The notes under the pieces are model-generated. The model searched no databases. It saw only the letters and a program-made list of their open reading frames with translations, and had not been told where the DNA came from. Below, piece by piece: positions 5,236-55,144 of a stretch of DNA of 64,000 nucleotides. This stretch comes from a virus (taxonomy: Duplodnaviria > Caudoviricetes): the IMG/VR virus record IMGVR_UViG_3300026522_000021. One strand, given 5' to 3'. The first letter of the stretch is position 1, and each line of letters starts with the position of its first letter. The position numbers and the translations under genes are program-made.

Positions 5236-5242
5236 GCGTTAT

Positions 5243-5452
5243 TTATTGCTCCTGTTTATTATTTATCCAATCTACAGCCTTTTTGAAATCTAAAGCCTTG
5301 CCATCAACTTCTAACATCGGTGTAGATGTGAACCCTTTATTAATCATCAAGTCCGCATCGTTGATAATTTCGTATTCAATTCCTGCGCTTGACAATTTCT
5401 TTTCTAAAACATTACACTTTGGGCATCCTGTGCTATAAAGTACAACCGCCAT
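5243..5452 (-). CDS. Glutaredoxin/NrdH-like redoxin
   Basis: YSTGCPKC redox motif; start re-placed at MAVVLY (5452). Confidence 0.85.
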   Translation of the reverse strand: MAVVLYSTGCPKCNVLEKKLSSAGIEYEIINDADLMINKGFTSTPMLEVDGKALDFKKAVDWINNKQEQ

Positions 5453-5462
5453 TTTCTTCTCC

Positions 5463-5906
5463 TTATACCAATAAGTATTCAATTATATATGTGGCTGCAT
5501 CTGAATAATTACTTTCTGTTCTATTACATGTTTCTTTTATCCACGGATGGAGATTGCTATCTTCCCCAATGCCAATGACATATATGTATTTATCGCCAAA
5601 ACGATTTATACCCTGAACAGCGCCAAGCTCCATATGCGATCCAATAGTCGAATCAATTTCTTCAAGATTTACAACAACAATGTCACAGTCATGCAGTTGC
5701 ATCATTTCCCAATCAAGGATTTCACGCTCAGACTTGTGCATCATGTGTTCATAATTAAAGTAAAGCGGAGGATGAATAAATTTGATTTTGTCAGAACCAT
5801 CGTATTTATCCTTAATGAGCGTTTCAAGTGCCTGTCTCCAATACATCTGTTTCTCAAATGGTATTCCGCTCATTTTGCCACAAGTATATATCTTGTATTC
5901 TTTCAT
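5463..5906 (-). CDS. Nucleoside 2-deoxyribosyltransferase-like protein
   Basis: IYTCGKM, DIVVVNL, SxGSHMELG pattern. Confidence 0.7.
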   Translation of the reverse strand: MKEYKIYTCGKMSGIPFEKQMYWRQALETLIKDKYDGSDKIKFIHPPLYFNYEHMMHKSEREILDWEMMQLHDCDIVVVNLEEIDSTIGSHMELGAVQGINRFGDKYIYVIGIGEDSNLHPWIKETCNRTESNYSDAATYIIEYLLV

Positions 5907-8246: not shown

Positions 8247-11200
8247 TCATATGTTATTAATCCTTTTGTATGATGTAATCCATAATTCTGTAGTCCCTTC
8301 CACTGGAACAAATTCGCCATCTTCATTCCTTTTCATCTTTGGCTTATTGCGACTTCCAGATATCATGACAATATCGCCTTCTTTGAGTTTGTTCTTGTTA
8401 AATGTTTTTCTATCAATTTTGCAGTCAAGCGTATTACCATGCTTCAGAGAATACATTTTTAATTTCGGTGCATATTTTGTGTCAAGTGATACCACGCAAG
8501 CCATGCCACTGTACCTATCATCTACGATGTCAACATATCCAAGGTGGTCTATTTGCGCTTGAACTTTATCCTTTAACGTTCTTTTTGGACAATGTATTTC
8601 TCTCGCAACAATGGTTAACAGCTTTCTGCTATCTAATTTTGTGAACATTTTGGGTGATTCTTTTTCGGAACAGCTTCTAACCAAATCTATATTAAACCCT
8701 TCTCTTTCAAGAATATCCTTTTTAATTTGAAGCCTACCATTGAAGTAATCAAAGTATTCATATAGTTTCATTAGATAATTAGCATCGCCGAATTCATCAA
8801 AGAAATCAAGCTCAATCAAAATTCTTAACTGCCTTGAATTTAATGTGGTTTTATTGCTCAGATCGTAAAGCAAATCAATAAACGAATTATATTTGTTGTT
8901 TCTAAGTTCGTACATTTCATCGGCTACTTGCGCATTCATATACTTGATTGAAGCTATACCTTTGAATATTTCATTGGTTTCTTTTGAAATGCTATACTTT
9001 GAAGATGAATGTCTGAACTTGATTGGCTTTAATGCAATTTTGAAAAACTTTAATTCATTTATCAGCTTAAGTGTTCTTTCATTATCATCCGCATAGTAAT
9101 TAAGTACGGTCGTATAATACTCAAGTGGATAATGTGATTTCAAATATGCACCATATAAACTATCATATGCATAAGACAGTGAATGTGATGCATTGAATGA
9201 ATATCTCGCAGCCTGTTCAACTACAGTCCATGTTTCGATAAATCCATCCTCTGTACCTACGCGCTTTAGCCAACCTTGCAACAATTTGCCTTTTAAGTCT
9301 GCAAGCTCCTTTTCCTTGAATTTCTTTTTTGCTATCTTCTTAATGATATCATATGAACCAGTTTCTTCTATACCAAGCCAAATCAGATATTTCATGATTA
9401 GCTCCTGATAAATCATTCTGTGTTTGCCTTCGACAAGAATATTGTCAAGCTCTTCAACTCCTGTCGTGTACGGTTTTCTGTTAATGAAATCATCAAGCAA
9501 GCTTGCACATCCGGGGCGAATGATGGCTACAAATGCAGACATTTCAGATACGCTTTTAGGCTTATACTTTTTTACAAGTCCTGTGGCGAAATCACTATCA
9601 GCTTGATTAATCGTACATGTTAATCCATTTGCATAGATATCATACGTTTTATCGTCAAGAAGTTTATCAATTTCACGGATGGTAGGAATTGGTATACCAG
9701 CAAGCTCACATGTATCTTTTATGATTGCCCAAACTGTGACAGATAAATACCTTTATACCCTCGGTTTCCCGATATTTATTAGGGGAGTAGACTATACCAT
9801 GTACTTTATCAAGTACCGCCCATTATAGTCGTTGAAGGTCTTTCAAGCAATTTGTGTAAATGTATTATATTTTCTATCTATATAAACCGTGGCATCTTTA
9901 TATAGTAGATTAAATATTCTCTCAATATCTTGTTTGCATGACGTTACACAAGTGAATGTGATATCTGTTTCTTTAACTGTTTTCGTATGTAAATCAAAGT
10001 ATTTTTTAATGAAATCAACAACATTTTGCAATCCTGTGTATCCAAGATGATACTGTGGTTTCTTTAAATAGTCATATTTATAAATTTGTATACTTCCGTC
10101 ACCATCGAACATCCCTCTTACGAAATGGTGCAATAATGATTCTTGAATACTTTTTAATATTTTGTCTATGTCAAACACATAACTTTTTCTATTATGAAAG
10201 CCGTATCTTCTAAGTGTATCGCAAATAGTTTTTGACGTAATATTAAGATAATAGTTTCCATACTTATCTTGTTTTATTTCTTTGTTGGATTTGATTGCCT
10301 TTTTATATTTTTCAATAATATCTATATCTTTCATAGTAAGCATAATTGCATTTCTTGTAGAAATATGTCCGTCTGCAAGTAGCAATCCTAAAAAGTATGC
10401 CTTTTCCTCTGTGTCTATTTTATCGAAAAAATGTGTATCAACTTTATAAATGGCGTTATGCCTTTCTTTATTTAAATCAAATCCCCATTCTTTAAGATGA
10501 TTGGCTATCGTTGTATTCCAACAATTATATAATTTTGCGATTTCACCAGTTCTCATCCCTTGATTAACATACATATCAATTACTTTATCTTTTTCTTTTC
10601 CCCAAAATTCTTTGCCTCCATTGCTTTTATGCAAATAATTTTAACAACTCCTTTGCCACGGAGTATAATGCTTGAAATTTCCATGCTGATTGCCCATTGC
10701 ATAAACACATAGGATTTCTCCATATGCCATCCTTCAACTTGTTTCTACTTTCGTTCCATATAGGCATGAAGGCTTTAGGGTTTCCCAGCAATTTAGAGCG
10801 TTTTCACTTCCATATTACTATGAAAGGCGACTATTATATTTAATCGTTTTTTAAATATTTATATTTATCACAGTTATAACCATCTAAAAGACAGCATATT
10901 TTTTCCTTCGTGTGAACTAAACCAAGCTCTTTTCTAACTGGTTTGTTATATAACAACATACTGCATGGACTCTCGGATATGCTTTCAACAACACCAACAA
11001 ATCTTTGACTTTCCTCAATGAGCTTCTTCCATTTAGGATTGTCTCGATAACTATCTAAGTCTTTAGCAACATCATCGTATTCAGCAATATTCTTGCCAAT
11101 ACCCTTACAATATACTCTGAACGCAGATGAGTCTTGCAATGGTTTCCATGCTATCATCCATGCACAGTTTTCAGCGCCAAGCAAATCCTCTGTAGCTTTT

Positions 11201-12462
11201 ATAAATGGAGTTCTATCGGCAGTATTAAGATCAATATCTGGAAGGCTGCGCGTACCAAGTATTCTTTCGACAGACATAAACCTTGTCGGAAATAATGTTA
11301 TAGGCGCATTAACGCGATCTATATCGGTTAGTCCAAGCATCTTTGTAATGTAAAAACTTGGCGCTGATCCTCTACCAGTGTTTGTTAATTTACCACCATA
11401 TTTCTCTTGACCATCTTTAACCACGTTATAATCAATTAAGAAGTAATTCGCCATGTTGGTTTTTTCTACAATGTCAACCTCATAGCGGATTGCATCAAGA
11501 TATTTACCCCATTCACTTTTAGGTATATTTCTTCTTTCATCTAACCATCTGTTGTTAATAATTCTTTTTAAATCGTTAATTGGATTTTGTGATACAGATG
11601 GTAATTTGATATCATCATTAATGATTGTTATCTCTGAGCAATCGTCAAATACAAGTGTATTATAAAGCAATTCTTCTGCTTGCTTTTTGTCAAATATTCC
11701 CTGTCTGACGTAGCGATTAATAATAGTCTTATCATCAGGATAATCCAAAATCATCCCATCTTCTTCTGGATATTTTCTGTCTTTCCCCTTTAGAAAAATA
11801 TCCCTGTACTTTGCATCTTCTGGCAGGATGTAATGGCTATCATTAGCATGGATCATAGCAATTCCAGAAGCTTTACTGAATTCATACATTGCAGTATTTA
11901 CTTGTTTTTGAAAATCAGTATTATGCGCTTGCATTTCAAGAAAGAAATGTTTTCCAAAATGCCGATTTAATGCAAGAAGAAGTTCTCTGTCGTTCCATAT
12001 TCCTGCCACACATGCAGATGTTACTATGAAATTATTTGGATTAAGAGAAAACAATAATTCATCATCAATCCTTGGACGATAATAGAAACCAGTATCATGC
12101 GCTTCTGACATGATATCGTTTAATTGCATAACGCCATCATTGTTTCTCGCAATTATGATGATATGTCTGTTGCTTCTATCTCTTCCGTATGTTGGATTTC
12201 CATCCTTATCTTCGCCAGTCTTAATTTTGCCTATACGATCATGAACATAATACGCTTCTGTGCCATAAATCATTTTCAATCCATATCGTTTTGAACAATC
12301 GAGCCAAGTAAATATATCGCCCTGAACGCCATGATTTGTTGTAAAAACAGTTGTATGCCCCAACTCAACGGCTCTTTTGCAATAATCTTCTTCCTTAACT
12401 ACTACATCAAGACTCCACGGATTTCCCTTATGGTCATGTTTGTGATAGTTATTGTATCTCAT
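8247..12462 (-). CDS. dnaE: DNA polymerase III alpha (DnaE-type); exons 12462-10843 and 9749-8247, about 1040 aa spliced
   Basis: PHP domain (HKHDH, TTNHG, ANDSHY), GRGSA, PDIDL, YSFNASH; exons join in frame as KND|YLSVTVW. Confidence 0.92.
9750..10842 (-). mobile_element. Group I intron in dnaE
   Basis: P1 helix CGAU|UA...UAGUCG with a U.G pair at the 5' splice site; core elements AAATTGCTGGGAA, AATCAGCA, TTCAACGACTA, ATAGTCT; terminal G at 9750; removal restores the reading frame. Confidence 0.9.
9843..10634 (-). CDS. Intron-encoded LAGLIDADG homing endonuclease
   Basis: FLGLLLADG and FVRGMFDGDG motifs. Confidence 0.9.
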   Translation of the reverse strand: MHKSNGGKEFWGKEKDKVIDMYVNQGMRTGEIAKLYNCWNTTIANHLKEWGFDLNKERHNAIYKVDTHFFDKIDTEEKAYFLGLLLADGHISTRNAIMLTMKDIDIIEKYKKAIKSNKEIKQDKYGNYYLNITSKTICDTLRRYGFHNRKSYVFDIDKILKSIQESLLHHFVRGMFDGDGSIQIYKYDYLKKPQYHLGYTGLQNVVDFIKKYFDLHTKTVKETDITFTCVTSCKQDIERIFNLLYKDATVYIDRKYNTFTQIA

Positions 12463-42640: not shown

Positions 42641-42660
42641 GAGTTAATTTATAGTGGCAG

Positions 42661-42741
42661 TGCGGATGAAGGGATTCGAACCCTTACGCCATTTGGCATT
42701 AGTTCCTAAGACTAACGTGGCTGCCGTTACACCACATCCGC
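42661..42741 (-). tRNA. tRNA-Leu(TAG)
   Basis: Cloverleaf, TTAGT-CT TAG GA-ACTAA, long variable arm, GGTTCGAATCC; CCA not encoded. Confidence 0.9.
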
Positions 42742-42747
42742 AATTTA

Positions 42748-42839
42748 CAAGGCGCATTTGTTGTTTGGTGTCCTTGTCGGACAAATACGATAACCCTAAT
42801 CATCAGCTTGTAAACATTTGAAATTGCTGTATGCGCCTT
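42748..42839 (-). ncRNA. CAGCAA-module RNA A (free-standing)
   Basis: AAGGCGCA-TACAGCAA...TGCGCCTTG terminal stem. Confidence 0.7.
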
Positions 42840-42884
42840 TCGATATGAGAAAATATTTAAGAATATGTAGAAATAATCTACACA

Positions 42885-42958
42885 TGGAACATACAGGACT
42901 CGAACCTGTAACTTATCGGTTATGAGCCGATTGCTCTGACCAATTGAACTAATGTTCC
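42885..42958 (-). tRNA. tRNA with CAT anticodon (elongator Met or Ile2)
   Basis: ATCGG-CT CAT AA-CCGAT; canonical D and T arms. Confidence 0.88.
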
Positions 42959-43368
42959 AAACATAATCAATATCAATTCGCCTCGTCAATAATTACTCAA
43001 CCGCCGAAACGCTTTTAGTTGGTTTGCGTTGCCATCTTCGTTACTCTGCCATTACTCTTTCAAGTTCATATCCACAGCAGATATTCTTAATTTTCATGGT
43101 TTTCGCTACTTAATCCTTAACATCCTCGCCTCATTACCGGCGATTTGAATTGATATTGATTTGTCCGCATTGACTCGTCCTGTTCTCAGCCCCAACAACC
43201 AGACCACCATCACGCACTATGGGCAGAACCAATCAACCGATATTCTATTACGTTGTTGCGTTCGTAATATATTAGTAAATTCTGGTGCGTCAGTCATCAT
43301 AAGTGAATAAGTATATATCATTTCAACTTATTCCATCCTTGTTTACGGATGCTTTACTTATTTCTGAT

Positions 43369-43449
43369 TGCGATGATTTGGATTCGAACCAATACCTCGC
43401 CCACGTTTCCCATGTCTACAGGCGTATGCTACCTTTTACAACACACCGC
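43369..43449 (-). ncRNA. tRNA-like element with aberrant anticodon arm
   Basis: GCGGTG/CATCGC acceptor stem, T arm TTGG-TTCGAAT-CCAA, expanded anticodon loop. Confidence 0.55.
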
Positions 43450-43583
43450 TTTTCAGTTATTCCATACCTTTACATCTGTACTATGGTTAGCTACACCATC
43501 GCCACCCTCACACTTTTGTTAATCTTTCCCTTAATGCTATTCTCTGGATAACTTTTCTGAATTATTCGCGATATAATTCATAG

Positions 43584-43665
43584 TGCTTGCGGAGGGAGTC
43601 GAACCCTCAATCCGTCTGGCGTGTGAGCTTAAATCACATGTGTATTCCATTTCCACCACGCAAGC
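43584..43665 (-). tRNA. tRNA-Leu(TAA)
   Basis: TGTGA-TT TAA GC-TCACA, long variable arm. Confidence 0.88.
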
Positions 43666-44098: not shown

Positions 44099-45598
44099 TT
44101 ACAGTAATCCTTCTACGGCTTCTCTTACTTTCGCGTAGCGTTCTCCATTCAGCGTTTCAAGAAGAACTTTGTAAGGATCAACCTGATTGCTCATGAACAT
44201 CTTCAGGATTTGAACCGAAAATCCACTGCAAAGAATAAGCCCCATATCATTCTGTTGCATCGGGATTGTTCCATTCAAGCGACCGCTTAAATTCCAGAAA
44301 CAAATCTTCGGAAGTTTATATCCTGCGTCCTCGAATTCCTGTGCGATTTCATCAAACAGGCTCTTGTTGAGATTGTGTGAACGACCGTCAAACTGCATGT
44401 CGGAACAAATCACGATCATCTTCGGCATATCTTCCGCAGAAGTATGATTTCTCTTTGCTGTTTTCAGGATCAGCATCATAGTCTTATAGATGTTCGTGTT
44501 TGAACAATCGGATTCGCGCAAGGAAAGATCAACTTTATCTGCAAGCGAATCGCAATTTGACAGATCGACAATCTTCGGATTGGATGAGAAGGTAATAAAC
44601 TTATCTTTCCAATCGCCTGTATTGTGTTCTGACATGTAAATTGCAAGTGCGGTTGCTACATCTAAAGGTGTACCACTTCCTGCAAAACTTCCCCATGTCA
44701 TAGAACCAGAACCATCACGAACAATCAGTGTGTTCTCTACAGACAGATCAGGAAGTGCCTTCCACAGCGCTTCGAGCGTTGCATCTTTTCTGCATCTATT
44801 CTGGCGATACTTCAGGCAGATCTCATGCGGATTAAGCGTGCTTGCGTTAATCTTTGCAGTGCCTTTTTCAAGCGATGCAAGATATTCGCGTCTACGATCC
44901 TCATCATTCCGTAAGAATGCGCTATTGTAGATCAGATTAGCTTTAGAAGGCACAGTTTCATAATTGATCTTATCCCATTTCTTAGCACTCATTTTGACCT
45001 CTACAACATCAAGATACTTTCTAAGTTTGGATAAAGTCTTTCTGTACTTCTTCTCTGTCCATCCAAGTTCACGGCAGATTGTTTTAGCTCTGTCAACTGT
45101 TATCTTGGATGATGCATTGACGCTCGGCATCCACTTCGCACACAGAGAAATCGACTTGCCTTCCTTCATGTTGGCTTTATCTTCTTTCAGCTGCGCCTTG
45201 ATTAAAGCGATTGCCTTTCCTCTCGTTCTTTCATCGTCAAGCATAACCATGACGCTATCCCAACGATTATAGAATGGGATAAGATCAATGATAGCCTTTG
45301 CGATCTTCGGCTGTTTTTCTGCAAGATAGCTCAGTCCAGCTCTGAAAGCTTTTCTCTCACCAAGTCCTTCACGGACATCGCCAAGATAGAAAAGATATTC
45401 AAGCGCTGTCAGCTTATCCTCAAAGAAAACTTTCATGAAATCTTCTTTGATCGCTTCAGGAAATCTGTTACGCATAGCAGATACTCCAAAGTTGAAATCA
45501 AGAAGTTTCTTTCCTGCTGTTGCATAGGCGATCGCGCCGTTTGTGGTTACTGATTTGCGAGTGTTCAATTCATTTTGCATTTCATCGAAGAAACTCAT
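44099..45598 (-). CDS. DUF2828-type TROVE/Ro60-like protein with vWA domain
   Basis: DVREGLGER, AKWMPS, YRKTL, MIDAS motif DGSGS, SDMQFD, FWNL, SGFS. Confidence 0.8.
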   Translation of the reverse strand: MSFFDEMQNELNTRKSVTTNGAIAYATAGKKLLDFNFGVSAMRNRFPEAIKEDFMKVFFEDKLTALEYLFYLGDVREGLGERKAFRAGLSYLAEKQPKIAKAIIDLIPFYNRWDSVMVMLDDERTRGKAIALIKAQLKEDKANMKEGKSISLCAKWMPSVNASSKITVDRAKTICRELGWTEKKYRKTLSKLRKYLDVVEVKMSAKKWDKINYETVPSKANLIYNSAFLRNDEDRRREYLASLEKGTAKINASTLNPHEICLKYRQNRCRKDATLEALWKALPDLSVENTLIVRDGSGSMTWGSFAGSGTPLDVATALAIYMSEHNTGDWKDKFITFSSNPKIVDLSNCDSLADKVDLSLRESDCSNTNIYKTMMLILKTAKRNHTSAEDMPKMIVICSDMQFDGRSHNLNKSLFDEIAQEFEDAGYKLPKICFWNLSGRLNGTIPMQQNDMGLILCSGFSVQILKMFMSNQVDPYKVLLETLNGERYAKVREAVEGLL

Positions 45599-46365: not shown

Positions 46366-46478
46366 GTATTATTTTGAATTATTTTTAATGTAGTTTTGAT
46401 TTCTCGCGATCACTACAAGCGCACAGTTTCTTACTTTTTATGATGTTAGTTTAGAACTGCAAAAGCAACCATTCATCG

Positions 46479-46551
46479 TGCGCCAGATGGGACTCGAACC
46501 CATGACTTTTCGATTAAAAGTCGAATACTCTACCATCTGAGTTACTGGCGC
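46479..46551 (-). tRNA. tRNA-Lys(TTT)
   Basis: TTCGA-CT TTT AA-TCGAA; canonical arms. Confidence 0.92.
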
Positions 46552-46555
46552 GTAA

Positions 46556-46629
46556 CAGGCGCAGTAGGAATTGAACCCACGCTCACGCAGCTTTGGAGGC
46601 TGGTAGACTTCCAATTATCTTATACGCCT
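46556..46629 (-). tRNA. tRNA-Trp(CCA)
   Basis: CAGC-CT CCA AA-GCTG; T arm GGTTCAATTCC. Confidence 0.82.
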
Positions 46630-46633
46630 TTAG

Positions 46634-46953
46634 TGGAGTAGAGGGGAATCGAACCCCTGTCCAAAACTACTCTATAAATATCCTTTACGCCGTTTGGGTT
46701 TGTACTGATCTGAATTTACAGATTCAACTCCGTCTGTCCACCACCTGTTTCACCGTCTTGTATAACAGGAACTTCAATCAGACATTACTTCGATCTTCAG
46801 CATTGACCGTCTAAAAGAATTACTGAAGATAGATGTGGCTCACGCCGCCATCCGATTTTCTGTATAATCAGCGTTTATATTTAGGTTTGATGATTAAGTC
46901 ATCACTCTGGCGAGATATTTACTTTGTAACCCTGTCGAAACCTTTACTACCCC
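46634..46953 (-). ncRNA. ssrA: tmRNA; tag peptide (A)ADYTENRMAA at 46872-46840
   Basis: 5' GGGGTAGTAAAGGTTTCGAC, 3' GGACAGGGGTTCGATTCCCCTCTACTCCA, G3.U acceptor pair, resume context ATAAAC-GCT, tag ending AA*. Confidence 0.92.
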
Positions 46954-46961
46954 ATATATAA

Positions 46962-47032
46962 CAGCGGTTGAGGGTAATGCTCCCCCTTGTTCTGGGTCAA
47001 AGCCAGACGTATTACTTTTATACTAAACCGCT
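46962..47032 (-). tRNA. tRNA-Gln(TTG) with deviant T loop
   Basis: TCTGG-CT TTG AC-CCAGA; T loop AGCATTA. Confidence 0.7.
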
Positions 47033-47162
47033 AAAACTTCTTGCAAAAACAATCTGGTTATGGTAATATAGTAAATGCCATCATTAGTTTGGTGTGCTTT
47101 GTGTATGTGGTAGGGAGTTGGCTTTGTGCCTTCTCCCTATCTTTGTTTCCTTCGACTCTTAT

Positions 47163-47215: not shown

Positions 47216-47593
47216 CTAATCACAATAGCCTTTAATTAGCTCTAAACCGTATTTATCCAAGACCTTCTCAACCGCATCCCAATAATATCTTCCACAATCT
47301 TCATTGTCGATAACAAATACATTCTCATATTTCGGTTCTTCTTCGTCAGTCCAGCTGTAAATCTGATAAGGTACATCAATATATTCTTTGATCCTAAAAT
47401 GTCCAACACCGTTTCCAGTTACGTCAGACCAATCAAATTCATCTTCATCTTCATCTTCATCGCTCCAATGTTTATACTCTTCATTCGCCATTTCCAGAAG
47501 AATATCAAGCAACCGTCCGCGTGTAACTTTGTCTCTGGATATAATGAAGCTGCTTGAACTACTGTTGGTTACAAAGTCTCTTCTAATCTTCAT
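47216..47593 (-). CDS. FVTNSSSSS-motif protein 6
   Basis: Starts MKIRRDFVTNSSSSSF. Confidence 0.85.
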   Translation of the reverse strand: MKIRRDFVTNSSSSSFIISRDKVTRGRLLDILLEMANEEYKHWSDEDEDEDEFDWSDVTGNGVGHFRIKEYIDVPYQIYSWTDEEEPKYENVFVIDNEDCGRYYWDAVEKVLDKYGLELIKGYCD

Positions 47594-48177
47594 TAAAATC
47601 TCTCCAATGACTCTTTGAAATCATGATACGTCTTGTACTTTTCTTTCCACGATGCTTGAATATCGCCAAGTTTCAAACCATATTTGTCAACCACATAAGC
47701 GATATACTCATAATCGTATAGCTTACGTCTACGCTTATTCTGCTTTTTAATTTCCTCAAAAACTTCATCCTTCGGATCTTTATACTGTGTTAATAGATAG
47801 CTTGCCATATCATAAGAAGAATACTCTTCAAACTGGCAGATCGGACACAGGCATTCTGGCACTTCATAATATCTTTCTGATCCTAAAAGCGTTTCGAATA
47901 ATTCATCATCATCCATTGCTTCAAGCTCTTCACGAGTATAATGAAGATCATATTCTCTGGTTTCTTCATTCCAATAATCGTTTTTCAAAATTTCATTTAT
48001 TTGTTCTTCGCGTGAAGGGTTGAGCATATGCTCCTGACATAATACATGCCCATTTTCACATTCAAACATATCAAAATCTTCTACACTTGCATCCCATCCA
48101 GAACCTTCAGCGCCGCAAATCTCACATACAAAACTACTGGATGAGCTATTCGTCACAAAGTCTTTTCTAAATTTCAT
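47593..48177 (-). CDS. FVTNSSSSS-motif protein 5 (Cys-rich, probably Zn-binding)
   Basis: Starts MKFRKDFVTNSSSSSF; CxxC, CxxxHxxC, CPIC. Confidence 0.85.
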   Translation of the reverse strand: MKFRKDFVTNSSSSSFVCEICGAEGSGWDASVEDFDMFECENGHVLCQEHMLNPSREEQINEILKNDYWNEETREYDLHYTREELEAMDDDELFETLLGSERYYEVPECLCPICQFEEYSSYDMASYLLTQYKDPKDEVFEEIKKQNKRRRKLYDYEYIAYVVDKYGLKLGDIQASWKEKYKTYHDFKESLERF

Positions 48178-48178
48178 A

Positions 48179-48451
48179 TTAACTCCAACTAAATTTTACT
48201 GCCGTTGTTGGCACACCTATCAATTCAAGAAATCTTTGCATATCAAAATTATCTATAATGGTATAACCATGTATAAAATATTCGCCTTCATCTATCTGCC
48301 AGTAATCATCAAGATAATAATCTGGCATTATTTCAGGGGCATAATCTTGATAGTTAAATATCTTTTCCTTTTGTTCATCAGTAATAGCAGACTTCGCTAT
48401 TACGAAACTGCTACTACTGCTATTGGTCACAAAGTCAAATCTTATCTTCAT
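48179..48451 (-). CDS. FVTNSSSSS-motif protein 4
   Basis: Start re-placed at MKIRFDFVTNSSSSSF. Confidence 0.85.
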   Translation of the reverse strand: MKIRFDFVTNSSSSSFVIAKSAITDEQKEKIFNYQDYAPEIMPDYYLDDYWQIDEGEYFIHGYTIIDNFDMQRFLELIGVPTTAVKFSWS

Positions 48452-48459
48452 TGTTTCCC

Positions 48460-48927
48460 TCAATGATGACTAAATCTTTGGATAGTGCAATCAAGTCTCG
48501 GCATAATTTCATGCTCCAAATCGCCGTTACAATGGTCATCATATTCTACAAGTGCGAGATAACCAAGTCCTTCGATCTTCTGTTTGAATTCTTCAAACCA
48601 CACATCAAGCCTTTCATTTACAGCCTTATCGAACTCATTTTTGTTTTCTGGCTTCTCAATCCAGTCATAGAAATCATGCCACCCAAGCTTTCTTTCGTAT
48701 TCATGCTCAAGAATATACCTTGCATCCCAATACATTTCATCTTTGAACTCATGCAAAGCTTCTTCTTTTGTAATTTTATTTCTCTTGACATCGTTCAACA
48801 CGGTATCAAATCTTTCGCCTAAGTAAAGCTCGTTTCTAAGTGCTTGCTCAACACTTCCTTCATCTTTAAATCCTACAATAAAACTACTGCTGCTCGAATT
48901 TGTAACATAATCTACTCTAATTTTCAT
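48460..48927 (-). CDS. FVTNSSSSS-motif protein 3
   Basis: Starts MKIRVDYVTNSSSSSF. Confidence 0.85.
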   Translation of the reverse strand: MKIRVDYVTNSSSSSFIVGFKDEGSVEQALRNELYLGERFDTVLNDVKRNKITKEEALHEFKDEMYWDARYILEHEYERKLGWHDFYDWIEKPENKNEFDKAVNERLDVWFEEFKQKIEGLGYLALVEYDDHCNGDLEHEIMPRLDCTIQRFSHH

Positions 48928-49352
48928 CAGTCATCTCCAGCAAGAATAATGAAATCATCGGATTTTAATTTTAAAAATAGCTCTCCTCTATAATCATCGT
49001 AAGCTATATCTTTCATTAAAATCTTGTATCCTTCATTCATCTTTTCTACACACTCATCATAAGTATCTCTAACCCAAGGATCATCTTTACATAACTCTTC
49101 AAATGTTTCGCACCCATACCCATAATCTTCAAAGAAATAGCGGCGCAAATCTTCCTTGTTTTCAAAAACTTCACTTTCTGTTGTTTCGTATGAGCCTCCG
49201 CTGCCCATCACAGCTTCTTTCACTATTCCCTGATACACTTCAAGAAATGGATATTTCTTCAATGTATCATTATCAATTTCTGGCAAACCTTTAAATGCTA
49301 CAATAAAGCTACTGCTGCTTGAATTCGTAACAAAATCATTTCTTATTTTCAT
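48927..49352 (-). CDS. FVTNSSSSS-motif protein 2
   Basis: Starts MKIRNDFVTNSSSSSF. Confidence 0.85.
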   Translation of the reverse strand: MKIRNDFVTNSSSSSFIVAFKGLPEIDNDTLKKYPFLEVYQGIVKEAVMGSGGSYETTESEVFENKEDLRRYFFEDYGYGCETFEELCKDDPWVRDTYDECVEKMNEGYKILMKDIAYDDYRGELFLKLKSDDFIILAGDD

Positions 49353-49860
49353 TTCCTACTATATTCCTCCCAATCAGAAAGAATTGCCATGACTAACAAA
49401 AATATATCAAGTATAAACCCACATCCCAAGATAAGCATAAACACAGCTAATAAAACTGTTGCCATTGTTACAACCCACCAATCTTTATCATGTGTTTGCC
49501 ACTGGAATTCCTATAGACTCACTTACCAGACCTTTTGATTTCGTTTAAATATCTATAGTATTCCTGAACGTTTCCATGTGACCAATAATCATCAAGTATT
49601 TCTTCCTGTTTCTTTGTATCAAATATTCCACCGAAAAGCTCATCTAATACGTCATTTCCAAATAAGCCCATATCATTCACCGTCATATGGCTCTGATAGA
49701 TTGCGCCACGCCACGACATTCAATCCCTTTTCTTTGTTGATATTAAAGCCGAACAGATTATTAGGATTATAAATGTCGTGAATTACACATCTTTCTCCTG
49801 TCGCTTTATCTTCTACCGTCACTTCATATACATTTTCTTCTCTTGGATTTCCGTCATCCT

Positions 49861-50193
49861 TTACGGATCTCCATACCTCATCCTGAAATGTTTTGTATCA
49901 TCTGCGTTAATATAATACATAAACAATCTATAGAAATCCCCATATTCATCTCCTGCCATACCGATATAAAAATTCCAGTCATCAATCGTTAAGTCAGGAT
50001 CATAATCAAAGTTGTCTTTGATTTCTTCGATTGCCTCTTGTGTAGTCAGACCATAATGCTCCGAGTATCTTTTGATTATATCCATGTTGCTTTCAATTAA
50101 ATTATTTAATTCTTCTTCGCTAAAATCTTTATGCAAAGCAACAATGTATGAACTCGAAGAACTGTTTGTCACAAAATCTTGTCTTATCTTCAT
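49861..50193 (-). CDS. FVTNSSSSS-motif protein 1
   Basis: Starts MKIRQDFVTNSSSSSY. Confidence 0.85.
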   Translation of the reverse strand: MKIRQDFVTNSSSSSYIVALHKDFSEEELNNLIESNMDIIKRYSEHYGLTTQEAIEEIKDNFDYDPDLTIDDWNFYIGMAGDEYGDFYRLFMYYINADDTKHFRMRYGDP

Positions 50194-50703
50194 ATTATCC
50201 TCTAAGGAATAGCCACTTCAACCAGTCTGGCAAATCGCTATTTATAATCACACCAAAATACCATTTGTTTAGTGCGATAACTGCCACAACAATGACAGCT
50301 ATCGCAATCGCAATTAAAATCTTCTTTACCATTTCTTAATCCCAAGCGTAAAGAAACTCATGTTCATTTGGCTTGCTGTATTTAGCGAAATCATTTTCTT
50401 GATCGTCAAGTTTTGCAAACCGTTTCTTTTCGCTGTGTTTATAGTTCTTCTTTCCGTACCAATCACTGTTGGTTTTATCATAGTCCGTTCTGGTTTCCAG
50501 ATGTTTACACTTTTTAAAACGTCCAACATCACCGACAAATTCTTTCGATGATACTCCAGTCACATCTTCATAGACTTTTGCCTGATGAACAGCCTTATTA
50601 AATGTTTTCTTGCGTCTTTCACCTCTATCGCACATAATGACCCCCACTAAATGTACTAATATAGTCAAAAACTTTCCAATAAAATCCGTCTTTTATTGGA
50701 GTT

Positions 50704-51435
50704 TTACGCAGATGTTAATTCGGCTTCTATTTCATCCTCAAATCTCTGCTCAAGCTCCAATATAGACTTTCCATTCCCTTTCATCGGTTCGCATAATCTG
50801 TATTCAAGACCTTTCAATCTCTTCCAATACTTCGGAAGATACCGATAAATAGATTTTAATTCCTTCAAGTTTTTATTTCGGCAGCACCAACAACTTACTC
50901 GATCTAAACAATCATATAGATCAACCCCACCCTCTTGCCACGCATAACCTTTGCTTCTGCAATATCTCAGGCAGTCTGCTTCGGTCATATTCCATTCGAC
51001 TAAAGGGAGAACCTTTCCTTCATGCTTTGCTTTCTCAAATCGTTGCGGCTCGTCAGCTGCAATTCCAACATAATCAGTCACATCATCATCAATAGTTTTC
51101 TTAAACTTGTCTATTGCTTGTAACTTTCCAGATGTTCCCCATCTACAAGCTCCACCACACCAACTGAAGCCATAATGATAACCTTCTTGTTTTCTATACT
51201 TGACTTCCCTGATTAACATAGAGATCCAGAATGGTTCTTGCGGATGCAGTTCAACGTATTCAATATTTAATTCTTTTAGTTTCGATTTAATTTCATCTCT
51301 TATATGATAGATTGAATCGAATTCCATTCCTGTATCGTAAAATACTACATAGTCAAGCGGATAATTCTTCTCTATCAACATAAGTAACATTGCTAAACTA
51401 TCTTTTCCAAAACTTACACTTGCAATATATTTCAC
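50704..51435 (-). CDS. PAPS-reductase-family (PP-loop) protein
   Basis: SFGKDS, DTGMEF, GIAADE..R, RVSCWCC; probable GTG start. Confidence 0.85.
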   Translation of the reverse strand: MKYIASVSFGKDSLAMLLMLIEKNYPLDYVVFYDTGMEFDSIYHIRDEIKSKLKELNIEYVELHPQEPFWISMLIREVKYRKQEGYHYGFSWCGGACRWGTSGKLQAIDKFKKTIDDDVTDYVGIAADEPQRFEKAKHEGKVLPLVEWNMTEADCLRYCRSKGYAWQEGGVDLYDCLDRVSCWCCRNKNLKELKSIYRYLPKYWKRLKGLEYRLCEPMKGNGKSILELEQRFEDEIEAELTSA

Positions 51436-51623
51436 ACCGACCACTAACCAGATCGCGGCAATGGTCAATTATTAAATCCTCCCATGCTAATGGCAATGCC
51501 TTCACGCTGTAACTAATAATTCTACACGCAACTTATCAATCTTTGCGAAACCCGGTCTACCGGGATTGGTGTTACTCCTTTTCTTTATTTTTTAAAATTA
51601 AATTATTTTGCATTATTTATTTC

Positions 51624-52442
51624 CTATTCACCGATATAAACCAACTTGTCTATGTATTCTCTATCTTCTCCTGCAAAAATCGGTATATTATCATCGGCAA
51701 CCCAATCAGAGCCACAGTATTTTACACAACTTCCTCGTTTCATAACGGTAGGATAATCATCCCAATTTACACCTTTTTCTTTGAGTAACATTTCCTTTAT
51801 TTCATTGCAACTCTTATTCTGAAGTTGTTTCTGCGTGAAGCATGATTGCCCAAGCATTTGTATACTATTTCTTATTGCATCAAGCTGTCTCCAATAGAAA
51901 TAATTTGTCACTTCTTCTTTTGTAAGATTAAAACATCTGGAGTCGAACATTGCGCCCCTTATTTTGGCTTTATAATAGACTTCATGTTGCTTCAATATTT
52001 TTCTTTCGTTATCTGATAAACGTCTATTTGTTCCACCTTCATCCCAATCTTCAATATTTTCTCTTCCAAACATATCAATGTTTGCCTCAAAATTTCTATT
52101 GAATATAAGAGTTGCTATAGAAGCTGTTACGCTACATACCTTTTGCACTTCATAGCCAAAGAACGCTTCAGTGTTTAATGATTTATAATCAATCAGCAAC
52201 AAAGAAATCTCATCGGATTGATGATAACCAAGAACGCATCCCTGAATGTTCACGCATAAATACTTCATCGTATCTTGCATAGTTTTTATCAATAAAGAAT
52301 CAAACGGCTTTTCAAAACATCTTGTAAAAGTATGAAATGCTTTTCCGTCAATGCGTATAATAACTGGCATCCTTCTTATTAAAGAGTTTTTTGGAACGCT
52401 CTCATACGTTTTCATCCTCTTTGCCAAATCGCTATTATCCAT
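51624..52442 (-). CDS. tRNA(His) guanylyltransferase Thg1-like protein
   Basis: RIDGKAFHTFT, QSDEIS, FDSR, WRQLDA.RNS. Confidence 0.92.
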   Translation of the reverse strand: MDNSDLAKRMKTYESVPKNSLIRRMPVIIRIDGKAFHTFTRCFEKPFDSLLIKTMQDTMKYLCVNIQGCVLGYHQSDEISLLLIDYKSLNTEAFFGYEVQKVCSVTASIATLIFNRNFEANIDMFGRENIEDWDEGGTNRRLSDNERKILKQHEVYYKAKIRGAMFDSRCFNLTKEEVTNYFYWRQLDAIRNSIQMLGQSCFTQKQLQNKSCNEIKEMLLKEKGVNWDDYPTVMKRGSCVKYCGSDWVADDNIPIFAGEDREYIDKLVYIGE

Positions 52443-53514
52443 TATTTATCCTTTCTTTATCACATAAAACAATCTCACTTCTAATCGGGCATCCTCCCAT
52501 ACACTCTCTTCTTCTTTCGCAATTCGGACACGAATTTCTAAAATGATTTCTGAAATCTTCAAACACTTCACTGTCCCATGCGTTCTGAATAGTATCGTTT
52601 GAAATGTCATACGCCCATTTCATGTCCTGATTGTCAAAGCTGCACGGCAGAGCTTTCATGTCTGATGTAATATACATTGACCATCTACCGCCCTCGCAAG
52701 TGTCAAAACTATCAGGATTGATTTTTGTTGTGAAATTGATTAGTCCGGGAACAGTACAGCTATCAAACCCGATTTTAAAATCATGATCGTAATTTTCTAC
52801 AATATTGAAAAACTTAGAAACTCTGCTATCGTTCACCTGTAAAACATTATCGGATTGACCAAGCCCAACAGGTTTATGAAGAAGGAATATAATCGCATTA
52901 ACGCCCTTTGGAAAATCGTTATCCTCAAGTCTTTGAATTGCTTCGTCAATGGAATTTTTTCCGAGAACATAATGGATGTTTGTCTTTACTCCTTCATCAA
53001 TAAGCATCTTAATTGCTCTAAGTGTATGTGGCTGTCTGTACCAACTGATTGCTACTGCGCCGCAATACTTCCTGCAAAGAGAAACAATCTCGTCATTAAA
53101 TCCTAATCCCGAAGATGTGAAATTAGGAACGATATTATTTTCGCGGCAGTATTGAAGGATCTCTTTGAAGTTTTCATGTTGATCTACATCGCCACGACCG
53201 CCAAGCGCAAGCTGATAACATTTTCCTTTACACTCATCAACAATTCTTTTAAAGTTTTCCAATGTCATGTTTGGATATTTCGTTTCAAGTCCGTTCTGAT
53301 AACACTGAACACCTGACTTGATACATAATCCGCTGCGTCCATGCTTGCAAAATCCCATTACGCCCACATCTATCAGTTCAGGGAATGAACTCATAAACGG
53401 ATCAACGCCTGTATCTTTCCCATGTTCATCAAGAATACCTGACCGCATATAGAACCCTGTATCTGGATTAAACATTGAAATGTATCTGTTCTTCTTGTCG
53501 TATTTGCGAATCAT
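52435..53514 (-). CDS. Radical SAM protein with SPASM domain and atypical Cys motif
   Basis: CX7CX6C-YQ, LALGGRGD; SPASM-like CEGG...PCSF...CPNC...CMGGCP. Confidence 0.85.
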   Translation of the reverse strand: MIRKYDKKNRYISMFNPDTGFYMRSGILDEHGKDTGVDPFMSSFPELIDVGVMGFCKHGRSGLCIKSGVQCYQNGLETKYPNMTLENFKRIVDECKGKCYQLALGGRGDVDQHENFKEILQYCRENNIVPNFTSSGLGFNDEIVSLCRKYCGAVAISWYRQPHTLRAIKMLIDEGVKTNIHYVLGKNSIDEAIQRLEDNDFPKGVNAIIFLLHKPVGLGQSDNVLQVNDSRVSKFFNIVENYDHDFKIGFDSCTVPGLINFTTKINPDSFDTCEGGRWSMYITSDMKALPCSFDNQDMKWAYDISNDTIQNAWDSEVFEDFRNHFRNSCPNCERRRECMGGCPIRSEIVLCDKERINNG

Positions 53515-53529: not shown

Positions 53530-54282
53530 TTAAAGGCTTGTCTGTGACGTAATGAAACAAATCTTTTCTCCTGTTTCAGTATTCACACCCATACCTTCAA
53601 CCCTAACTTCATAATTCCATGTATCAAACTTTACTTTGTCGCGCTGTTCATCAAGACAAACTATTTTAAATCTGACCATCCCTTTGAAATTCTTGATGAT
53701 AGTTCTGCACCATTCGCCATATTTTTCTAAGAAGTCTGGCTTACGTTTTAAAATGTTTTCAAGTGTATCAACACATACCATTCCTGCGTCCGCGCAGAAA
53801 CTTCCGATTTCTTCTTTTGTTTCTGAATCGAATGTCGTACATCCCCAATCGCCGTAAATCGTATCGCGACATAACGGGAGGGAGTCTAAATCAAATCCTC
53901 TGCACCATTCATTAGTTGTATAGCAAGGGTCTGTAATAACTATGTCGCCTTCCATATCAACCCATTCGCTGTCAAGCAATCTCTCCAGTGACCACAACAT
54001 TGATTTACAACTCTGAAGAACACCGAAACCTAATTCAGTATTTACATACTGTTCTTCTTTTAAGTAATCATCATTCTGATTTACGCATTTTATTCCATGA
54101 ATAAGCCATTTGAAATCATCCGCTGACGCGTCCTGACAAGTCCTAACTTTTTCGATTAAATATTTCTTATCAACATTTTGTAAGTTATCATCTTGATTGA
54201 TTAGTTTACATGTCAATTGAACAGCAACGCCGATATCGTGAAGCGCTTCTTCTTTCTTTTGTTCATACCATTGGTTGTCCAT
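53530..54282 (-). CDS. Hypothetical phage protein
   Basis: ITDPCY, TIYGDW, FCADAG motifs. Confidence 0.65.
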   Translation of the reverse strand: MDNQWYEQKKEEALHDIGVAVQLTCKLINQDDNLQNVDKKYLIEKVRTCQDASADDFKWLIHGIKCVNQNDDYLKEEQYVNTELGFGVLQSCKSMLWSLERLLDSEWVDMEGDIVITDPCYTTNEWCRGFDLDSLPLCRDTIYGDWGCTTFDSETKEEIGSFCADAGMVCVDTLENILKRKPDFLEKYGEWCRTIIKNFKGMVRFKIVCLDEQRDKVKFDTWNYEVRVEGMGVNTETGEKICFITSQTSL

Positions 54283-54349: not shown

Positions 54350-55108
54350 TTAGAACGCTTCGCCGTTATAGATTCTGATGGAGAAGCACGGAACAACCCC
54401 ATAGACGTAGCTCGCGTAGCTGCTGCTCAAGTAGCCGTGGATGCCGACAAGCATGAAGTAGGTCGCGACGCTCAAGTGGGGGGAGCAAGTCCAATACCAA
54501 TATGTTTCTCCATCTTTATTGTTCTTACATCTTTCCGCTTCTGTCTGCAAACCATTGAATAGAATGTCATCTTTGCCAGAATGATATTCTGTTTCTTTAA
54601 GGTTAGCCAAAGAAAGAAGATTTACTTTTCTCCTGAATGTCACAACCTTGCCATCTGCGCTTGCGATATGCTCGATGATCTTCATACTATCAACAAGCTC
54701 TTTCGGCATCTTGTCTGTGAAATCATCAAGATATTTTTCCATATCATCAATGCTGGACTCGCCAACAATATCTCTTGACACAAAATACACATCATCGTAT
54801 TCATCCGTCTTGTTGATATGTTCAACCACAAAAGTTACAACCTTGTCACCTACAGGAACGTCAAGCGTATCCTTCAGTCTGTATGTGTCTTTGACAACAT
54901 CTGATATTTTCCGATCAGAATAACACGTATATCCATGTCTATATGTACAATCTTCAGCGCCGATTTCCTCAAGCTCTAAATCCTTATCATTCACAGCTTC
55001 AAGAACAACGCCGTTAACCAGTTTCACATAATTCTTTCCTGTGCGTTTGTCGCGAAATCTCTTTACACCCTCCATGATTTGTTCTCCTTGTATTGAATTA
55101 TCTTGCAT
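54350..55108 (-). CDS. DUF6273-like (C-type lectin fold) protein, putative DGR target
   Basis: KVNLLS, WYWTCSP...GVVPCF C-terminal pattern. Confidence 0.7.
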   Translation of the reverse strand: MQDNSIQGEQIMEGVKRFRDKRTGKNYVKLVNGVVLEAVNDKDLELEEIGAEDCTYRHGYTCYSDRKISDVVKDTYRLKDTLDVPVGDKVVTFVVEHINKTDEYDDVYFVSRDIVGESSIDDMEKYLDDFTDKMPKELVDSMKIIEHIASADGKVVTFRRKVNLLSLANLKETEYHSGKDDILFNGLQTEAERCKNNKDGETYWYWTCSPHLSVATYFMLVGIHGYLSSSYASYVYGVVPCFSIRIYNGEAF

Positions 55109-55115
55109 TTCCTAT

Positions 55116-55144
55116 ATTATAGCATTGTTCTTTATGTATGTCAA
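55116..55144 (-). promoter_or_regulatory. Consensus SigA promoter with extended -10
   Basis: TTGACA-17 nt-TATAAT with TG extension. Confidence 0.85.

Follow-up and report, generated by a model that had tools for sequence, protein, structure and literature searches.

A shared N-terminal tag on unrelated phage proteins and its linkage to a radical SAM/SPASM enzyme in viruses and cells

The shared N-terminus and its linkage to the enzyme

The window analyzed here is a stretch of 64,000 nt from a virus of the Caudoviricetes (IMG/VR record IMGVR_UViG_3300026522_000021). Its minus strand carries, between positions 47216 and 53514, a gene for a radical S-adenosylmethionine (SAM) enzyme with a SPASM domain and, downstream of it, six open reading frames (ORFs) for small proteins that all begin with the same 16 residues (Table 1). 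This N-terminus, referred to below as the tag, is probably the recognition and reaction site of the enzyme, with one enzyme marking many unrelated proteins. The linkage between the two holds across large gut phages, bacterial and archaeal loci beside STAND NTPases, and T4-like coliphages.

All six ORFs start where the first-pass annotation had placed them, and a six-frame scan of the window finds exactly these six copies of the tag. The common sequence is MK(I/F)RxD(F/Y)VTNSSSSS(F/Y): M1, K2, R4, D6, V8, T9, N10, and S11–S15 are fixed in the six, with either I or F at position 3 and either F or Y at positions 7 and 16, and the alignment is lost beyond about residue 20. The back-translated pattern has six matches in the window, against 0.00 expected from 100 shuffles. 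Conservation had been attributed to the protein rather than the DNA on the grounds of mixed serine codons, and this is borne out. At each of serines 11, 12, 13, and 15, AGY codons in some copies stand against TCN codons in others, and the 48-nt tag-coding stretches are just 56–83% identical (mean 68%), so selection acts at the protein level and the tag is not a DNA repeat. Each of the six genes is preceded by a GGAG/GAGG-type (Shine-Dalgarno-like) ribosome binding site. The start of the 90-aa gene is most likely the ATG at 48451 rather than an upstream TTG at 48463.

Behind the tag, the proteins diverge. When the first 20 residues were removed from 346 distinct tagged proteins, the remainders fell into 63 BLAST clusters, with the six window bodies in six different ones; three pairwise profile comparisons among four of the window body families gave hhalign probabilities of at most 2%. 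By these measures, the six bodies appear unrelated to each other. In cellular genomes the tag is also fused to BspA-type leucine-rich repeat (LRR), TIR, BRCT, and HIRAN domains and heads some proteins that have a hydrophobic segment; the tagged LRR, TIR, and HIRAN proteins are 450–777 aa long. AlphaFold2 models of the 141-aa and 155-aa window proteins had predicted local distance difference test (pLDDT) scores of 87 and 90. In both, residues 1–11 are unstructured and would therefore be free to dock, and residues 13–20 make up the opening strand of a small sheet, which C-terminal strands close off. Fold searches with the two body models returned no meaningful match (best Foldseek E 0.07; VIA-align Z at most 4.4 with one model and, from a generic helical hairpin, 7.4 with the second). 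The family of the 155-aa protein has a conserved C-terminal Y-x-D...LEH...P...SHH pattern, possibly a metal site, and the family alignment of the 194-aa protein has invariant C, C, H, C, and CPxC columns.

The tag is widespread. A profile built from the first 35 residues of the six proteins was used in an exhaustive search in which representatives are clusters at 50% identity, and matched 14,930 representatives at E ≤ 1e-3 and 195 at E ≤ 1e-10; in 144 of the 149 best readable matches, the tag begins at residue 1. The strict back-translated pattern was found in at least 113 stretches on at least 93 viral contigs and in at least 120 stretches in bacterial and archaeal assemblies. Among the matches listed, viral tags usually occur as arrays of one to six genes on contigs of 50–500 kb. 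Pfam, NCBIfam, PHROGs, and PADLOC hold no informative family for the tagged proteins, with only weak N-terminal matches to phrog_7397; the six window proteins and the bacterial tagged proteins tested match no Pfam family, the six match no NCBIfam family either, and the ESM Atlas offers only unnamed viral clusters. One 6.6-kb contig binned as Candidatus Kaiserbacteria (L250) encodes the enzyme (58% identity) and, after it, six tagged proteins; as this is the phage layout, it may be wrongly binned phage DNA.

Co-occurrence of the motif with this radical SAM family had been named beforehand as the test that could refute a connection between them, and it proved strong in both directions and in independent settings. 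Starting from the tag, tblastn with the window enzyme found it in the flanks of 67 of 93 tagged viral contigs (43–82% identity, among the matches listed), and whole-contig searches of the other 26 added 16 more, for 83 of 93 among the matches listed; the ten without a detected enzyme are mostly fragments. On phage contigs, the enzyme gene often ends 5–50 nt ahead of the first tagged gene. Starting from the enzyme, tags lie within 8 kb in 46 of 80 enzyme loci. One clade that seemed to be without a tag (66% identity) has a D6G variant of it 3.4 kb downstream, outside the strict pattern; by whole-contig profile search, contigs of this clade rated at least 64% complete have three to five tags each, and a 7%-complete fragment has two. 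The same check found tags on 15 of 17 enzyme-bearing contigs, the two misses being contigs that end just past the enzyme gene. In cells, the enzyme is within the 8-kb stretch in 98 of 120 tagged bacterial and archaeal loci among the matches listed, and 122 of 123 cellular tag genes beside an enzyme are on its strand.

The other window genes tested behave differently. No homologue of the Thg1-like, PAPS-reductase-like, TROVE, or other window genes tested is found in the 120 cellular tagged loci listed. In the 80 enzyme-centered viral loci used as a control, Thg1 occurs once and the phosphoadenosine phosphosulfate (PAPS) reductase not at all, and a 250-aa protein and the TROVE gene are confined to one clade each. 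Only the tag follows the enzyme.

The tag also varies with the enzyme. The enzymes split into a clade that includes the one in the window and a distant clade, here called L199-type. Position 14 of the tag is Thr in 21 of 21 copies beside L199-type enzymes and Ser in 275 of 284 beside window-type ones, these rows being phylogenetically non-independent. This is the pattern to be expected of an enzyme-substrate pair.

Among cultured phages, enzyme homologues with 26% identity occur in 171–174 records of T4-like phages of Klebsiella, Enterobacter, Cronobacter, Citrobacter, and Escherichia. The genes adjoining the homologue in phage RB16, RB16p156, have no tag. A profile search of the whole RB16 record found two tagged proteins, RB16p106 and RB16p111, about 20 kb from the enzyme, which begin MKIRSGFVSNSSSSSF. 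Homologues of RB16p111 are present in 175 records, whose hosts are distributed like those of the enzyme homologues, and RB16, KP15, Miller, and about 170 other coliphage and Klebsiella phage records have both parts. A near-identity DNA search of the window region against cultured phages gave no match, nor did tblastn with a tagged protein, where the low-complexity filter probably masks the serine run. In the RB16 record (66610–71000), the two tagged genes flank one for a 739-aa vWA-domain protein, which is unrelated by BLAST to the TROVE/vWA gene of the window (44099–45598). The C-terminal LEH...SHH of RB16p111 (4989–5501 of the RB16 locus L318) resembles that of the 155-aa window protein; the likeness is not significant by BLAST, which aligns the tag only.

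The enzyme, its predicted complex with the tag, and competing explanations

The window enzyme scores 24.1 bits against the SPASM model PF13186 (cut-off 21.5), with the seven cysteines expected of that domain, and 27.1 against TIGR04085 (cut-off 27). Among relatives 27–82% identical to it, the SPASM cysteines C253, C273, C291, C329, C332, and C342 are kept throughout, and C338 almost throughout. There is also an invariant cysteine triad, C56, C64, and C71, with spacing C-x7-C-x6-C in the window enzyme and other spacings in other clades, and an L-G-G-x-G-D motif is kept in the enzyme and its relatives. The cluster-binding cysteines of radical SAM enzymes are canonically arranged as CxxxCxxC. This arrangement is found in the L199-type clade, whose members are 31–39% identical to the window enzyme and pass the Pfam Radical_SAM model; homologues 31–32% identical and aligned over their full length score 52–57 bits against it (PF04055). 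The enzyme has no Pfam or NCBIfam family of its own, and no curated NCBIfam family comes near threshold. The nearest solved sequences are PqqE (6c8v, E 9e-7), SkfB (6efn, E 5e-6), BtrN, and anSME (4k36, E 3e-4), all distant matches mostly within the SPASM part.

A structure prediction of the tag with the enzyme had been suggested as a further check. For the complex, residues 1–45 of the 141-aa protein family were folded together with SAM, three 4Fe-4S clusters, and the enzyme, the last represented by an alignment of 25 sequences. Three runs gave values of 0.92, 0.92, and 0.93 for the interaction prediction score from aligned errors (ipSAE), against 0.02 for the best of three controls, with at least 87% agreement in contacts and a partner pLDDT of 60–65. 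In calibration of the tool, 58 of 80 solved complexes scored this high, as did 2 of 110 mismatched pairs; the figures apply just roughly here because custom alignments were supplied and ligands were included. The predicted interface places tag residues 1–18 in the barrel, against enzyme residues 19–26, 101–106, 129–133, 152–155, 177–181, and 247–255 and the SPASM region. In the model, K2–R4 pair with enzyme residues 20–24, in a segment holding the invariant G20, R24, and G26, and F7, V8, and T9 lie over invariant barrel residues at 101–103, 129–131, 152–155, and 179. These positions are the conserved ends of the barrel strands, the place of SAM-binding motifs. The modeled serine run extends along residues 206–211 and 247–255 and the SPASM domain. 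The prediction supports binding, with the tag threading into the enzyme barrel.

A mechanism can be sketched from these contacts. The short conserved N-terminal strand of the enzyme (residues 19–26) would grip tag residues 2–4, and residues 6–15 would be threaded over the top of the barrel and along the SPASM domain, with a radical-based covalent change most likely within F7–N10 or the serine run. In this way a single enzyme would act on many unrelated proteins, of which this phage has six. Because the tag has no cysteine, thioether types are excluded within it; serine oxidation, a C-C or ether crosslink involving F7, T9, or N10, and epimerization may all be possible chemistries. The phage would use the module on arrays of small acidic proteins in an early-type operon, and cells on one tagged protein, encoded with the enzyme beside a STAND/Avs-like NTPase, so that it is most likely used on both sides of phage-host conflict. 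Given their early-type promoter, and given that the cellular relatives are found in an immune setting, the six acidic proteins may serve in host takeover or counter-defense.

The first-pass annotation had pictured a phage modification system in which one maturase acts on a shared tag in many substrates. The maturase part gains from the linkage, the covariation, and the complex model, while the covalent change is something we infer. The phage part needs widening, since the system does occur in phages but is not specific to them, being present in bacteria and an archaeon as well.

Several results weigh against modification of the tag by this enzyme. Tag and enzyme genes are some 20 kb apart in the T4-like phages, and some tagged contigs have no detectable enzyme even by profile search, including one of 331 kb rated 92% complete. 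Many of the loci come from related phages, so that the counts overstate the number of independent events. The window enzyme has no match to PF04055 in Pfam, and the cysteine triad of its clade departs from CxxxCxxC. A docking model cannot separate substrate from ligand and is silent on catalysis. Finally, tag residues 13–20 are a core strand in the modeled bodies, and the enzyme would therefore have to act on residues 1–12, or before folding.

Part of the evidence would suit a tag that is a docking handle only, with the tagged proteins binding the enzyme unmodified, either as adaptors through which other targets reach it or as its regulators or inhibitors. Linkage, covariation, and the complex model all speak of association and no more, and the small accessory protein of the KpAvs2 operon, considered below, stably binds its partner (PMC11564622). 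Such a role is nonetheless unlikely, as the tag is modeled through the catalytic barrel and not on the surface, and the invariant T/S-N-S-S-S run has the look of a reaction site rather than of a binding epitope. As a class, moreover, SPASM enzymes mostly modify peptides. A slightly smaller chance attaches to a tag that acts without the enzyme, by self-processing (an N-S/S-S acyl shift or pyruvoyl-type cleavage) or as an oligomerization strand or stability signal, the enzyme being a conserved neighbor with some other substrate. The tagged contigs without an enzyme and the distance between the genes in T4-like phages count in its favor, as does the run of Asn followed by serines, which resembles known self-cleavage sites. 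It would sit poorly with a two-way linkage kept over phages, at least five bacterial phyla, and an archaeon while all other neighbors change, with the covariation of tag and enzyme clades, and with the high score of the complex model relative to controls.

A common origin of the six genes as ordinary paralogues, in one fast-evolving family whose best-kept segment is the shared start, is improbable. A minimal shared core is conceivable, since residues 13–20 are the first strand of a small sheet in both AlphaFold2 models; but the three body-pair profile comparisons, the six separate BLAST clusters, and the fusion of the same start to unrelated Pfam domains all argue the other way. Still more doubtful is a virion-packaging signal like the capsid-targeting sequence of T4 internal proteins, by which the six proteins would be packed and injected. 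The T4 internal-protein loci do have a conserved short N-terminus on divergent small proteins encoded by tandem genes. The tag, in contrast, also occurs next to STAND NTPases, on chromosomal, plasmid, and archaeal genes that have no phage genes around them, it is carried by LRR, TIR, and HIRAN proteins of 450–777 aa, and it follows the enzyme (flanks were not scanned for capsid or protease genes).

STAND-linked loci and known systems

In Acetatifactor muris, Veillonella parvula, Sporomusa, Arenibacter, and Methanoculleus, the tagged protein and enzyme of the L199-type module are encoded in one operon together with a large STAND NTPase, a protein of about 140 aa, and, in many cases, a further protein of 330 aa with PF21648 at its C-terminus. 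The Acetatifactor NTPase has a trypsin-like N-terminus, and the two NTPases tested match the PADLOC models Avs2 and Avs1b. In Acetatifactor and Veillonella, a metallo-beta-lactamase protein like Avs1a/LmuA is encoded ahead of the NTPase. The same arrangement occurs on Agrobacterium plasmid pAt after a SMEK-NACHT protein, there with the tag MKLKMDFVSNSSSTSF. STAND homologues were found at 13–14 of 15 L199-type loci and at none of the viral loci, and there is no STAND gene among the genes of the window operon (ORF list and Pfam). The protein of about 330 aa, whose C-terminus is like those of integron cassettes (PF21648), directly follows the enzyme in eight of the 120 loci (e.g., 1061–2059 of L199). 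The STAND-linked operon of Sporomusa also encodes a PRTase-CE protein (PF24390; L214, 5192–6808).

This layout resembles that of KpAvs2 with Avap1 and Avap2, a likeness of arrangement which is offered as a lead and not as a finding. In the KpAvs2 operon, Avap1 (a radical SAM protein) and Avap2 (a small protein) are accessory parts without an assigned role (Bechon et al., 2024, PMC11564622); Avap2 stably binds the NTPase, Avap1 is required against some phages, and the Avap2 family was reported as PF19902 (DUF6375) (PMC11564622). The two have in common a radical SAM gene and a small protein gene beside an Avs2-type NTPase, the L199-type order being NTPase, small protein, tagged protein, enzyme, and NTPases of that clade carry varied N-terminal effectors (trypsin-like, SMEK) and match Avs2/Avs1 models. 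They differ in that the window has no STAND gene. A search of the tagged proteins and their small neighbors with PF19902 gave no match, with no positive control in any genome searched: the family scored nowhere above its cut-off, either in the genomes from which the loci come or in some 800 genomes of two phyla. A more specific scheme, tentative and rather unlikely as it stands, is that in cells the enzyme-modified tagged protein arms or regulates the STAND/Avs NTPase, with the KpAvs2 pair perhaps an example; the phage arrays would then imitate, compete with, or block it, and the six window proteins would be modified counter-defense factors.

Modification of a shared tag by one enzyme has parallels among the SPASM maturases of peptides that are made on the ribosome and modified after translation (RiPPs), in pathways with several precursors, namely PqqE-PqqA, SkfB-SkfA, SuiB-SuiA, and MftC-MftA. 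There, too, the enzyme gene adjoins genes that share a short recognition segment, and the tag, for its part, is predicted to pair with the enzyme as an added strand and enter the barrel. Here, by contrast, the enzyme would act on whole folded proteins of 90–777 aa instead of short peptides. The conserved part lies at the very N-terminus and is probably the reaction site as well, and there is no leader-core layout, exporter, or full RiPP recognition element domain. No protease gene turned up among the recurring neighbors, although the flanks were not scanned for protease genes. A RiPP precursor/maturase system with leader removal was considered and set aside, the putative substrates being proteins of 90–777 aa with folded bodies. 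With anSME/AtsB, the module shares a SPASM radical SAM enzyme and a short near-N-terminal motif on a full-size protein, where the target may be a serine. It differs in having a tag without (C/S)-x-(P/A)-x-R, bodies that are not sulfatases, and an enzyme in a separate family. Assignment to the anSME-sulfatase systems was likewise rejected, as MKIRxDFVTNSSSSSF contains no sulfatase motif and the bodies match no sulfatase family in Pfam. Proteins of the T4 capsid-targeting type, restricted to virion cargo, were also tried as a class and did not fit, with the tag present in chromosomal, plasmid, and archaeal loci.

The FxSxx-COOH peptide systems have radical SAM/SPASM genes within NTP-dependent conflict systems, and a C-terminal peptide is released by a peptidase (Kaur et al., 2020, PMC7159879; Kaur, Burroughs, Iyer, and Aravind). 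They resemble the module in that a radical SAM/SPASM gene stands beside variable proteins with one short conserved piece, in immune-type neighborhoods. The conserved piece here is instead the N-terminal 16 residues, and no peptidase was seen alongside, in flanks that were not scanned for proteases. Literature searches on the motif, phage SPASM enzymes, radical SAM together with Avs, and Avap1 turned up no account of the module. These peptide systems (PMC7159879) and the uncharacterized Avap1/Avap2 pair (PMC11564622) are the nearest in print. What is added here is the STAND/Avs association of one enzyme clade, the covariation at position 14, a complex model with controls, and RB16-type phages as a tractable test system. 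If the tag is indeed modified by the enzyme, this would be a general protein-tagging chemistry in which one radical enzyme serves many unrelated proteins rather than one peptide, with up to some fifteen thousand protein clusters involved. A large block of hypothetical gut-phage genes would gain its first functional handle, and the radical SAM genes that accompany some Avs-type immune systems as accessories could be explained.

The operon and its other genes

The coordinates of the enzyme, the tagged genes, and the other members of the transcription unit are collected in Table 1. The promoter that the first-pass annotation had put upstream of the enzyme and all six tagged genes is present with a perfect consensus. 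Between it and position 47216 there is just one terminator-like site on the minus strand, a weak one at 53801–53780, within the 250-aa gene. The order in the unit is DUF6273, the 250-aa protein, the enzyme, the Thg1-like and PAPS-reductase-like genes, two small ORFs, the six tagged genes, and a cluster of tRNA and transfer-messenger RNA (tmRNA) genes.

Table 1. Features of the minus-strand transcription unit in the 64,000-nt window
Feature	Positions	Strand	Remarks
Sigma-70-type consensus promoter	55116–55144	-	TTGACA-17-TATAAT, 12 of 12 matches, extended TG; head of unit
DUF6273 protein, first operon gene	54350–55108	-	PF19789, E 3e-10
250-aa protein, directly upstream of enzyme	53530–54282	-	No family
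Radical SAM/SPASM enzyme, 359 aa	52435–53514	-	SPASM PF13186; phrog_7293 at 2e-23
Thg1-like tRNA-His guanylyltransferase gene	51624–52442	-	Family match; in unit, between enzyme and tagged genes
PAPS-reductase-like gene	50704–51468	-	Family match; in unit, between enzyme and tagged genes
Tagged protein 1, 110 aa	49861–50193	-	Begins MKIRQDFVTNSSSSSY; own BLAST cluster for body
Tagged protein 2, 141 aa	48927–49352	-	AlphaFold2 model; partner in complex model
Tagged protein 3, 155 aa	48460–48927	-	AlphaFold2 model; conserved C-terminal LEH...SHH
Tagged protein 4, 90 aa	48179–48451	-	Length from the ATG; shared tag
Tagged protein 5, 194 aa	47593–48177	-	Two Cys/His zinc-ribbon-like motifs directly after tag
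Tagged protein 6, 125 aa	47216–47593	-	Shared tag

The Thg1-like and PAPS-reductase-like genes belong to the same transcription unit and are outside the module. They are missing from almost all related loci (present in 4 of 113, in 1 and 0 of 80, and in 0 of 120) and therefore look like local insertions. Homologues of the 250-aa protein, 33–43% identical, are near the enzyme in 26 of the 80 viral loci, all of one clade; the protein and its homologues (e.g., 10721–11542 of the related locus L155) have a conserved GD-I-I-TDPCY...YGDW-CTTF...FCADAG pattern. Directly downstream of the tagged array, at 46478–47033 and 42660–43665, are the tRNA cluster (Lys, Trp, Gln, two Leu, and Met) and a phage tmRNA with the tag peptide ADYTENRMAA.

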